64,000 nucleotides of DNA from an uncultured Rhizobium sp. (GTDB taxonomy: Bacteria > Pseudomonadota > Alphaproteobacteria > Rickettsiales > UBA1997), in assembly GCA_964447395.1 (NCBI GenBank), contig CAYUSO010000006.1:10154-74153 (forward strand), written 5' to 3'. How positions within the stretch are numbered: the first letter of the stretch is position 1; each line of letters begins with the position of its first letter. Position numbers and translations under genes: made by a program. Positions 22,340-23,644 of the stretch are shown here, piece by piece. The notes below the pieces were generated by a model. That model ran no database searches. It was not told the DNA's origin and worked only from the letters and a program-made list of their open reading frames with translations.

Positions 22340-23644
22340 CTAAAAATTAATTTTGCTCCCCTGCCAATATTCGTCCGACTCGATCTCCTTCAGCCTTGAA
22401 ACCGTGCGTTTGAAGGCTTCGGAGTGAGTGTGGATTTTGTCGGGAGTTGTTTTGGCGAGGATGATTAGCGCGGTTTTGTTTTCGTAAATTTCGTCGATGA
22501 AGAGTGTGAATCGCCGCGCCTCATTTGGCTCTTCGGCGCTCAAGGAAGGGAGTTTTAACAAAAAAATCAAATCAAATTTTTGGCAAATTGCTTGGTAATC
22601 GGAAGCGGAGAATTCGGCGCGGCAGAGTTCTTCGAAAGTGAAGATGGCGATTTCCTTTTTTTCAGCTCCCCAAGCAAAACCCTCAGTTCCCCAAGCAACA
22701 CTCTCAGTTCCCCGAGCGGAGTCGAGGGGATGGAAATTTTCTTTCGTAGCCCCTCGACTCCGCTCGGGGAACTGAGGGTGTTGCTTGGGGAACTGAGAGT
22801 GTTGTTCGAGGAACTGAAAACACTCGGGTAGTTTAGAAGAGATTTGGGAATATTGCTGAATGGAAAAACTTTTTCTGACTTTAATTTCCCTGCCCCAAAC
22901 TTTTAATTTTGTAATTTTCGCCTTTTTCCCGTCGGTAAAATTTTCGATAATTTTCTTTAGCTCTTCGCGGGTTTTTGTGTTGGAAATGAAGTAGCGTTGA
23001 GCCAAGCCTTTTCTGAATTGCGCACGATAATCTGTTGGCGAATCGAGATGCAAAACTTCGCAATTTTTTAGCAAAACTTCATCGATAAATTCTAAAAATA
23101 TTTCGCGTTGAAGTCCGTTTTTGTAGAGCTCACGCGGATGAGAGTTGGAAGTAAAAACAACCACCACACCTTGCGAAAAAAGATAAGAAAAAATTCGTGA
23201 AAGCAGCATGGCGTCAGCGATGTCGGTGACTTGGAATTCGTCGAGACAGAGGATTTTAGTCGTAAGCTGTAAGCTGTAAGTCGTAAGTCGAGTTTTGTGA
23301 GTGTTGAACGATGGTTGACGAGTGGAGACTCTTTTTACCGCCTCAATTAACTCATCTTTAAACTTTTTTTCCTCTTTTCGAATATCGCGCAGAGCCTCGT
23401 GAATCTTGCGCATGAAGCTGTTGAAGTGGAAATAAATTTTCGGCGTTTCATGAAGTGAATCGAAGAAATTTTTCATCAACATGCTTTTGCCGCGACCAAC
23501 ACCTCCGTAGATATAAAAGCTTTTTAGCGGATTTTTTTTTGCAAAAAACTTCGCCAAAAATCCGCTGGATGATTGCTGCTCAAGCTTTGTTGCGAGCTCG
23601 GCCAATTTTTTTTCGACGGCGATTTGTTGTGGATCGAGAATCAT
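22340..23644 (-). CDS. zapE: cell division protein ZapE (AFG1-like ATPase), with two in-frame repeat insertions
   Basis: 434 aa. Walker A GGVGRGKSMLM, Walker B ILCLDEFQVTDIADAM, then VVVFTSNSHPRELYKNGLQREIFLEFI. Confidence 0.9.
   Translation of the reverse strand: MILDPQQIAVEKKLAELATKLEQQSSSGFLAKFFAKKNPLKSFYIYGGVGRGKSMLMKNFFDSLHETPKIYFHFNSFMRKIHEALRDIRKEEKKFKDELIEAVKRVSTRQPSFNTHKTRLTTYSLQLTTKILCLDEFQVTDIADAMLLSRIFSYLFSQGVVVVFTSNSHPRELYKNGLQREIFLEFIDEVLLKNCEVLHLDSPTDYRAQFRKGLAQRYFISNTKTREELKKIIENFTDGKKAKITKLKVWGREIKVRKSFSIQQYSQISSKLPECFQFLEQHSQFPKQHPQFPERSRGATKENFHPLDSARGTESVAWGTEGFAWGAEKKEIAIFTFEELCRAEFSASDYQAICQKFDLIFLLKLPSLSAEEPNEARRFTLFIDEIYENKTALIILAKTTPDKIHTHSEAFKRTVSRLKEIESDEYWQGSKINF
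22663..22828. repeat. Family A palindromic element, long compound copy A5, inside the zapE ORF
   Basis: Core at 22706-22729 and its complement at 22750-22773. Each arm is extended by 21-nt sub-repeats: cagctccccaagcaaaaccct and cagttccccaagcaacactct, mirrored by agggtgttgcttggggaactg and agagtgttgttcgaggaactg. Translated as ...QFPKQHPQFPERSRGATKENFHPLDSARGTESVAWGTEGFAWG... Confidence 0.9.
23257..23330. repeat. Heptamer-tract element B2 (one clear arm), in frame in zapE
   Basis: tagtcgtaagctgtaagctgtaagtcgtaagtcgag at 23257-23292, followed by a degenerate interior similar to B1. Encodes PSFNTHKTRLTTYSLQLTTK; compare [18 protein letters not shown] in mnmG. Confidence 0.75.

Follow-up and report, generated by a model that had tools for sequence, protein, structure and literature searches.

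Rickettsia palindromic elements (RPEs) are palindromic repeats that lie within Rickettsia genes without breaking the reading frame, at sites that the fold of the encoded proteins can accommodate (Ogata 2000 Science; 2002 Genome Res; PMC10969869). Their presence in essential genes has been known since 2000. In the REP/REPIN systems inverted repeats are associated with Y1 transposases (PMC11893778). A further system is that of the Ssn proteins (cd10448), single-domain GIY-YIG nucleases that act as site-specific endonucleases on single-stranded DNA (ssDNA; Chenal et al. 2025, PMC11893778) and bind the NTS/SRM hairpin repeats flanking their own genes, in an arrangement resembling that of insertion sequences (NTS-ssnA-NTS); SsnA both binds and cuts the flanking hairpins. 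According to the same work, NTS/SRM repeats have a wide distribution among phyla and have multiplied in symbionts (Rickettsia and Wolbachia among them), the stem and the 5′ flank are conserved for NTS recognition with the loop being dispensable, and neither coding insertions nor RPEs are mentioned (PMC11893778). The element discussed here is a long compound palindrome within zapE, the gene of the AFG1-like cell-division ATPase ZapE, in a stretch of 64,000 nt of DNA (the window; all positions are those of the whole window) from an uncultured Rickettsiales-like bacterium. The locus is an RPE/REPIN-like protein-coding palindrome in a new lineage and of a new sequence family, and the hairpin from which it is built is linked, in other genomes, to a GIY-YIG gene cassette, a link that resembles the Ssn/NTS system and is formally distinct from it.

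The gene, the element and its parts are the following.

22340-23644, minus strand: zapE, open reading frame (ORF) of an AFG1-like ATPase of 434 residues, with the insertion at residues approximately 266-326.
22659-22820, no strand: compound palindrome in zapE, 162 nt or 54 codons, with arms of 71 nt and a spacer of 20 nt.
22662-22724, plus strand: left arm with three 21-nt units, starting at 22662, 22683 and 22704.
22705-22728, plus strand: F unit, CAGTTCCCC-GAGCGGAGTCGA-GGG, with a conserved 12-nt loop and a CCCC/GGGG stem.
22730-22749, no strand: 20-nt spacer, ATGGAAATTTTCTTTCGTAG, the tip of the long hairpin.
22751-22774, minus strand: R unit, exact reverse complement of the F unit.
22755-22817, plus strand: right arm with three mirror 21-nt units, the outermost of which holds six of the seven arm mismatches.

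The inverted-repeat arms (22659-22729 and 22750-22820, 71 nt each) are 90% complementary; they differ at seven positions overall and at one position in their inner 50 nt. The innermost unit of each arm is an intact 24-nt core, CAGTTCCCCGAGCGGAGTCGAGGG, with no mismatches at 22705-22728 on the plus strand and 22751-22774 on the minus strand. The two outer units of each arm are degenerate and mainly keep the 5′ half of the core, the identity of the left-arm units to the reference copy (the outermost unit) being 100%, 86% and 67%. A preliminary description of the locus had reported a 24-nt core pair accompanied by sub-repeats with a 21-nt period; both cores are indeed exact, and all four sub-repeat strings quoted there are found at 21-nt spacing, with the mirror units on the right arm. 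The extent it gave, 22663-22828, denotes the same object with slightly displaced ends, and its 'two or three' sub-repeats per arm are better counted as two plus the core unit, a possible third one on the right (22821-22835) being very degenerate. Folded as ssDNA, the segment 22659-22820 reaches −75.9 kcal/mol (z = −18.2 with respect to shuffles), and the 267-nt linker segment of zapE folded as RNA reaches −146.8 kcal/mol with a stem of approximately 70 bp. The mRNA structure is a likely cost of the element, in that the linker RNA could impede ribosomes or attract RNase III. No Rfam family matches the window at the gathering threshold, and in E-value mode the region 22500-23000 yields only sub-threshold matches to microRNA precursors, which are typical of any long hairpin.

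The 434-residue ORF contains no stops or frameshifts and matches the AFG1/ZapE profile PF03969 (E = 5.9e-74, 249.6 bits, cut-off 27) in two stretches that are divided by the insert. When 20 homologues are aligned, every invariant position of the alignment (more than 100), including those of the Walker A (GRGKS) and Walker B (DEFQV) motifs, is intact in the window's protein. That the frame stays open through the element had been stated in the preliminary description, and the peptide quoted there is exact for the minus-strand ORF at 22340-23644; the predicted product of the palindrome includes QFPERSRGATKENFHPLDSAR. The closest orthologue (P0002) shows 76% identity in its best local alignment with the window's ZapE and 79% in the full one, and the gene order nuoM-zapE-large protein is shared with the window, so that the zapE genes compared can be regarded as true orthologues. 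The linker measures 83 residues in the window as opposed to 29 in P0002; the difference of 54 residues, or 162 nt, equals the length of the palindrome. At the DNA level, comparison with the nearest orthologous locus (L048) shows clean flanks and the whole block missing there, while in minimal orthologues '...VWGREIKIKKTFE' runs straight into 'KIAIF...', leaving approximately 70 extra residues in the ZapE of the window. The possibility that the segment is ordinary ZapE sequence, which had been raised from the outset, was checked against the homologues, and no alignment of the segment with normal ZapE was obtained. A survey of the site in 112 scorable homologues showed that 90 have the minimal spacing of 13 residues and that 22 are expanded, by up to 71 residues, the expansions belonging to several unrelated peptide families.

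Since a sequence search of the PDB with ZapE returned no solved relative, the insert was placed by means of an AlphaFold2 model with a confident core (mean predicted local distance difference test score, pLDDT, 76.7). In the model residues 266-326 form a loop (pLDDT approx. 30) between the strands formed by residues 252-265 and 327-336, with flanks at approximately 90. The preliminary description had raised the question of an exposed hairpin; in the model the insert is a low-confidence loop, predicted to be disordered, between two β-strands. As judged from sequence comparison and from the model, the zapE segment is an insertion, foreign to ZapE, at a surface turn predicted to be disordered.

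The same turn is occupied by other elements in relatives. In one of them (L049, protein P0007) the ZapE loop contains a palindrome with arms AGATCCTGAAACAAGTTCAGGATGACGGAG and CTCCGTCATCCTGAACTCGTTTCAGGATCT, and in another (L050, P0003) four 24-nt tandem units are followed by a palindrome; by visual inspection, the elements of both have a CGTCAT head and an ATCT tail as in the Neisseria NTS repeat, so that NTS-like elements (CGTCAT...ATCT) occupy in sister lineages the loop that holds the palindrome in the window, a point of likeness to the Ssn/NTS system. The presence of unrelated palindromes in one ZapE loop across lineages indicates that the loop is an insertion-tolerant hotspot. The growth of such arms could be followed in four zapE genes of the P0007 lineage, each taken from an independent assembly, whose DNA identity outside the loop is 95-97.5%. 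The 21-nt unit AGTTCAGGATGACGGAGCTTT is present once in L049 and L133 and as three perfect copies, confined to the left arm, in L132 and in L131, the latter with an additional 51-nt duplication in the right arm; all changes in unit number among the four genes are in frame. The sister strains provide direct evidence for in-gene growth of the arms by duplication, as regards the sister element only. The two arms of the window's element may have originated symmetrically in one step or separately: the mismatches cluster in the outermost unit, and the sister lineage grows one arm.

The zapE palindrome belongs to a family. With up to three mismatches allowed, 15 matches to the core are found at 8 loci in the window, as opposed to 0.00 expected from 100 shuffles. 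Besides the zapE copy the family comprises the following, none of which is assigned to a strand.

436-560: intergenic copy with 18-nt sub-repeats, mostly in the right arm.
3679-3757: intergenic copy, F-19 nt-R, with 100% complementary arms.
5128-5196: intergenic copy, R-spacer-F, between divergent genes.
6120-6175: in-frame copy, R-spacer-F, in the ABC-F ATPase ORF at 5214-7094.
23752-23826: degenerate intergenic copy, between zapE and nuoM.
57622-57688: intergenic copy, F-19 nt spacer-R, with I9 arms 17 nt apart.
59187-59260: intergenic copy, F-20 nt-R, with a degenerate 19-nt sub-repeat after it.

Six doublets have the order F-spacer-R, with spacers of 19-20 nt, and two the order R-spacer-F, with spacers of 18 and 25 nt. 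The nested build with a shorter period that had been described for the first intergenic copy (436-560, formerly A1) is present, the period being 18 nt. Six of the eight copies are intergenic and lie among housekeeping genes, those for a malic enzyme, an M16 peptidase, a thioredoxin-reductase-like protein, a FabG-like protein, CvpA and COQ9, and the G+C content of the copies (54-64%) exceeds that of the window (41%). The spacers of several doublets are homologous to one another, in either orientation: those at 23752 and 57622, for instance, agree at 17 of 19 positions in reverse complement (score 15, null maximum 9), which points to the doublet as the unit of spread. The copy within the ABC-F (Uup-like) ATPase (5214-7094, plus strand) accounts for 23 residues ('SRDPSTPLGEPNESSSPSEVEGPKN') where orthologues have 4 ('NVSKSF-GEKK-LIEKFSL'), a gain of approximately 19 codons at the β-turn that precedes the second ABC domain; other inserts are found at the same turn in P0172, P0134, P0190, P0165, P0136 and P0133. 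Among named homologues of the window's host proteins, the best are from metagenome-assembled genomes (MAGs) labelled 'Rickettsiales bacterium' (66-78% identity).

By its behaviour, the family resembles the RPEs (approx. 100-150 bp): it is a multi-copy palindrome that occurs in frame in unrelated housekeeping genes and also between genes, namely at 8 loci in the window, with in-frame insertions in zapE and in the ABC-F gene and a position that is compatible with the fold in silico. It differs from them in that the host is not a Rickettsia and in the length of the basic doublet, 56-80 bp, the 162 bp of the zapE copy being reached only through the 21-nt duplications. In the literature searched, no link of RPEs to a hairpin unit flanking GIY-YIG genes is reported. 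With REPINs and BIMEs the family shares the inverted doublet of an imperfect palindromic unit of about 20-25 nt that forms a long hairpin with a short spacer, the occurrence of both head-to-head and tail-to-tail orders, the extragenic position of most copies and the proposed pairing of a non-autonomous repeat with an enzyme gene that is present in single copy between units of the same kind. Unlike REPINs and BIMEs, which have a 5′ GTAG motif and a RAYT Y1 transposase, the units are preceded by TCAG, TTAG or CTAG and never by GTAG, the neighbouring gene elsewhere encodes a GIY-YIG protein (no Y1-specific scan of the window being made), and the family is tolerated inside ORFs. With respect to a classical miniature inverted-repeat transposable element (MITE), which has terminal inverted repeats and target-site duplications, the element of the window is a palindrome over its whole length. 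The mobile GC clusters and palindromic elements of fungal mitochondria are likewise G+C-rich palindromic mini-elements in A+T-rich genomes that can sit in frame in protein genes, and GIY-YIG endonuclease genes are found in those mitochondrial genomes too; the likeness goes no further, the clusters being organellar and unrelated in sequence.

The distribution of the unit outside the window leads to the GIY-YIG genes. A search for the exact 22-mer TTCCCCGAGCGGAGTCGAGGGG in one genome per species (approx. 1.2e12 positions) returned 47 loci, as opposed to about 0.07 expected by chance, in Actinomycetota, Spirochaetota, Calditrichota, Ignavibacteriales, bacteria of the candidate phyla radiation (CPR), Chloroflexota, Pseudomonadota and a Rickettsiales-type MAG, several genomes having more than one match. 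There the unit takes the form of a single small hairpin, TTCCCC-GAGCGGAGTCGA-GGGGAA, which often adjoins hairpins with the same 12-nt centre and other stems, sometimes in tandem arrays that include 21-nt ones. Clustering of the surrounding ORFs identified a recurrent neighbour at four of the 47 loci, in four phyla: a single-domain GIY-YIG protein of approximately 95-110 residues (PF01541, E = 1e-14 to 1e-17). At one of these loci (L004) the gene is flanked by an F unit and an inverted R unit, and at another (L046) an F unit is followed by the gene, then by R units spaced by 21 nt (five within four substitutions over six positions) and then by F. No informative NCBIfam match was obtained with the GIY-YIG proteins, for which Pfam gives PF01541 only.

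An independent test made use of 80 metagenomic loci with relatives of these GIY-YIG proteins (53-74% identical; 363 relatives confirmed in all). Exact cores (GAGCNNNGTCGA or its complement) number 184 in 54 of the 80 loci. F cores reach 2.9/kb at −100 to −1 and R cores 5.5/kb at +1 to +100 with respect to the gene, as opposed to 0.06-0.09/kb beyond 300 nt, an enrichment of approximately 50-90-fold, and none lies inside the GIY-YIG gene in the 80 loci. An F core within 120 nt upstream or an R core within 120 nt downstream is present at 44 of the 80 loci, and both at 18; in other phyla, the typical distances are approximately 25-65 nt upstream for F and 5-40 nt downstream for R. A Watson-Crick stem of 4 bp or more directly borders 85% of the cores, as opposed to 0.6% of random positions, and the inner stem tetramers are of 18 kinds. 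In 150 distinct units 79% of the cells are paired (shuffles, 57.5%; slid controls, 33-45%), each of the three inner stem pairs shows 43-80 double-sided changes, and the covariation score is 0.568, as opposed to 0.194 for shuffles, none of 500 of which reaches it, and 0.10-0.18 for slid controls. The unit is thus a hairpin whose 12-nt loop, GAGCGNAGTCGA, is fixed and whose stem is free and covaries, and it is physically linked to small GIY-YIG genes of one clade; the F-19/20 nt-R doublet of the window has the architecture of the GIY-YIG cassette with the spacer in the place of the gene.

Some of the loci recovered have features of their own. In L046 (4153-4650, a Spirochaetota MAG) the GIY-YIG ORF continues stop-free into the 21-nt R-unit array (7-residue repeat 'LDSARGT'), so that the reading frame of the nuclease takes in the array as a C-terminal extension. 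In Gordonia malaquae (L007, approx. 7440-7560) a short unit array lies apparently just upstream of 'LVNMYGITETTVHVT', a motif like that of nonribosomal peptide synthetase adenylation domains, which suggests that copies within ORFs occur outside Rickettsiales. In a Pseudomonadota MAG (L029, 3275-3330 and 6096-6166) the loop-conserved unit, accompanied by 10-nt AGTCGAGGGG tandem repeats, shares a contig with a canonical NTS/SRM doublet (CGTCACCCCGGCGAAGGCCGGGGTCCAG / CGTCATTCCGGCGAAGGCCGGAATCCAG); thus, the two hairpin classes coexist in one genome.

This association resembles the described one of Ssn with NTS, with which it shares the short inverted hairpins on both sides of a GIY-YIG gene of approximately 95-110 residues in other genomes. 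However, the logic of recognition appears to be inverted with respect to NTS, the loop of the unit in the window being conserved and its stem free. The identification of the unit with SRM was considered and rejected, since the published SRM pattern (HGTCWY-N0-2-YYVSBRH-N0-5-WNVSBRG-N0-2-RNCYNB), which as a regular expression recovers canonical NTS and finds the true doublet in L029, fails on it. In the searchable literature the 12-nt core gave coincidental primer matches only.

From these data, the zapE segment is probably a selfish, non-coding hairpin-repeat copy that sits in a permissive turn of ZapE and persists because the frame stays open. Since three of the element's six frames contain no stop, an open frame after insertion is unremarkable, and purifying selection, rather than design, would suffice. 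The doublets may be gene-less miniature derivatives, similar to REPINs or MITEs, of the GIY-YIG cassette, and by analogy with SsnA and NTS they might be made, moved or maintained in trans by a GIY-YIG nuclease acting on the ssDNA hairpin. The 21-nt sub-repeats would result from tandem duplication of a unit length (20-22 nt), through replication slippage promoted by the hairpin or through repair after nicking, and the outer units would have decayed after the duplication. Within the gene, selection would have removed changes that are not multiples of three or that introduce stops, and the 54 encoded residues may be a tolerated passenger loop and not a functional module. The more general proposal, that the loop-conserved hairpin GAGCGNAGTCGA and a UPF0213-like GIY-YIG protein constitute a distinct selfish system across phyla, specific for the loop rather than for the stem, whose doublets generate the protein-coding palindromes of Rickettsiales-type genomes, is put forward only tentatively and may well prove wrong. 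The preliminary description had missed that an RPE-like phenomenon is general in the clade (ABC-F copy, ZapE loops of relatives), that the core is linked to GIY-YIG genes across phyla and that 21 nt correspond to one unit length.

Several observations weigh against these proposals. Comparison of the junctions with the empty site of an orthologue that is approximately 76% identical shows no target-site duplication. A profile hidden Markov model of the GIY-YIG proteins detects no gene in the six-frame translation of the window (best E = 0.76), so that a cognate nuclease of the organism is hypothetical. The closest solved structure to the GIY-YIG clade is that of UPF0213 protein BH0048 (1zg2, E = 1e-15), so that the clade is closest to UPF0213 structures and not demonstrably to Ssn, and the SRM pattern gives no matches in the window (0.14 expected), in L048-L050 or in 202 kb around the 80 GIY-YIG genes. 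Doublets of both orders, F-R and R-F, occur, and the spacer of the zapE copy has diverged, being weakly similar to the other spacers. No strain variants of the zapE copy of the window were found, so that the early suggestion of arm growth by local duplication is borne out in the sister lineage, by whole 21-nt units in one arm, and not for the element on which it was based. Finally, the period being a multiple of three is not in itself evidence of selection, because frames are stop-free and the unit length is 21 nt. As a proof of frame selection the 21-nt period was rejected as sole cause; arrays with other periods are the 18-nt one of the intergenic copy at 436-560 and those of 10 and 15 nt in L029 and L035.

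Among the alternatives, the one that survives best accepts that the repeats are selfish and denies that the GIY-YIG protein is their mobiliser: the genes would home into existing doublets, or the repeats would be moved by a RAYT-type Y1 transposase, by recombination or by gene conversion. The order around many GIY-YIG genes is R, F, gene, R, F, which fits a gene within or between doublets and is a further point against mobilisation by the nuclease; the lack of a GIY-YIG gene in the window and of a visible target-site duplication goes in the same direction, and Y1 transposases are known to serve the REP/REPIN systems (PMC11893778). However, cores are densest in the 100 nt next to the gene, F on its upstream and R on its downstream side, and approximately 50-fold sparser beyond 300 nt, stems vary around a fixed loop as expected of co-evolving protein-hairpin pairs, and SsnA, by analogy, binds and cuts its flanking hairpins, so that this explanation is considered rather unlikely.

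An adaptive role of the insert, as a flexible linker or interaction peptide selected in ZapE with the palindrome being incidental, is improbable. It would be consistent with the ORF being kept through 54 extra codons and with the repeated, independent expansions at the same loop in relatives, but the DNA element is mostly intergenic (six of eight copies), the peptides at the site are unrelated between lineages, the insert is predicted to be disordered (pLDDT approx. 30), half of the frames are open anyway, and the copy number differs between near-identical strains. It is very improbable that zapE is decaying, or is a pseudogene of a reduced genome with a residual open frame: the full ORF of 434 residues, the more than 100 invariant residues kept, the confident core of the model, the conserved synteny and the intact orthologues with comparable inserts in several independent assemblies are set against the presence of two foreign segments in the gene (the palindrome and a heptamer insertion at residues 107-128) and against the RNA stem of about 70 bp, which would hinder translation and could attract RNase III. 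An assembly artefact, that is an inverted-duplication chimera from amplification or assembly, is hardly credible in spite of the metagenome-type contig and of long perfect palindromes being a known class of artefact, because the core is found at 8 loci, the insert measures exactly 54 codons with matching flanks and has seven arm mismatches, and analogous in-gene palindromes are present in independent assemblies.

With the zapE segment read as a selfish hairpin-repeat copy, the locus extends the in-frame palindromes to another uncultured Rickettsiales-like lineage, in which loops are hit repeatedly by different elements, and the sister strains offer a direct view of arms that grow by whole 21-nt units within a gene. 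The building block is tied to a hairpin that flanks GIY-YIG genes across bacterial phyla, with strong covariation of the stem and a constant loop of 12 nt. Recognition of the loop by the nuclease, if it occurs, would add to Ssn/NTS another type of ssDNA nuclease-hairpin pair with site specificity. If the mechanism outlined above is correct, it would provide a candidate enzyme and a testable course of events (nicking of an ssDNA hairpin followed by unit-length duplication or copy insertion) for the 25-year-old RPE phenomenon, with relevance for research on genome evolution and for the development of ssDNA tools.

Further features of zapE and of its surroundings were noted besides the palindrome. 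The second extra segment of the gene is unrelated to it:

23263-23326, minus strand: second extra zapE segment, residues approximately 107-128, made of CTTACGA/CTTACAG heptamers and predicted to be disordered.

It is a 7-nt tandem array (CTTACGA CTTACAG CTTACAG CTTACGA) that is extra with respect to minimal orthologues. At the same site P0055 and P0059 have large repeat peptides (GGEPKSPSLLR, five times), which makes the site a second insertion hotspot in ZapE. Directly downstream of zapE an ORF of 1392 residues (18155-22333, minus strand) has no Pfam match; in relatives zapE is followed by a protein of 1251-1370 residues, so that it appears to be a conserved, uncharacterised large protein of the clade. 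Mechanically called ORFs at 23671-24105 and 22580-22831 (both plus strand), with products such as 'SQLPEQSRGVGKQ...', are read from stop-free copies of the palindrome family (family A), which, being open in several frames, can seed spurious gene calls. The palindromes at 43077-43176 and 60019-60160 are based on heptamers (AATTAAG facing its inverse; ATTTACG-type) and represent a different, A+T-rich intergenic class. A DUF2497 protein of 480 residues (61463-62905, minus strand) is 100% identical in Logan contigs of runs SRR11567520 and SRR32910815, the latter being also the source of the insert-free ZapE P0002; this identity indicates that the organism of the window, or a very close strain, is present in both samples.

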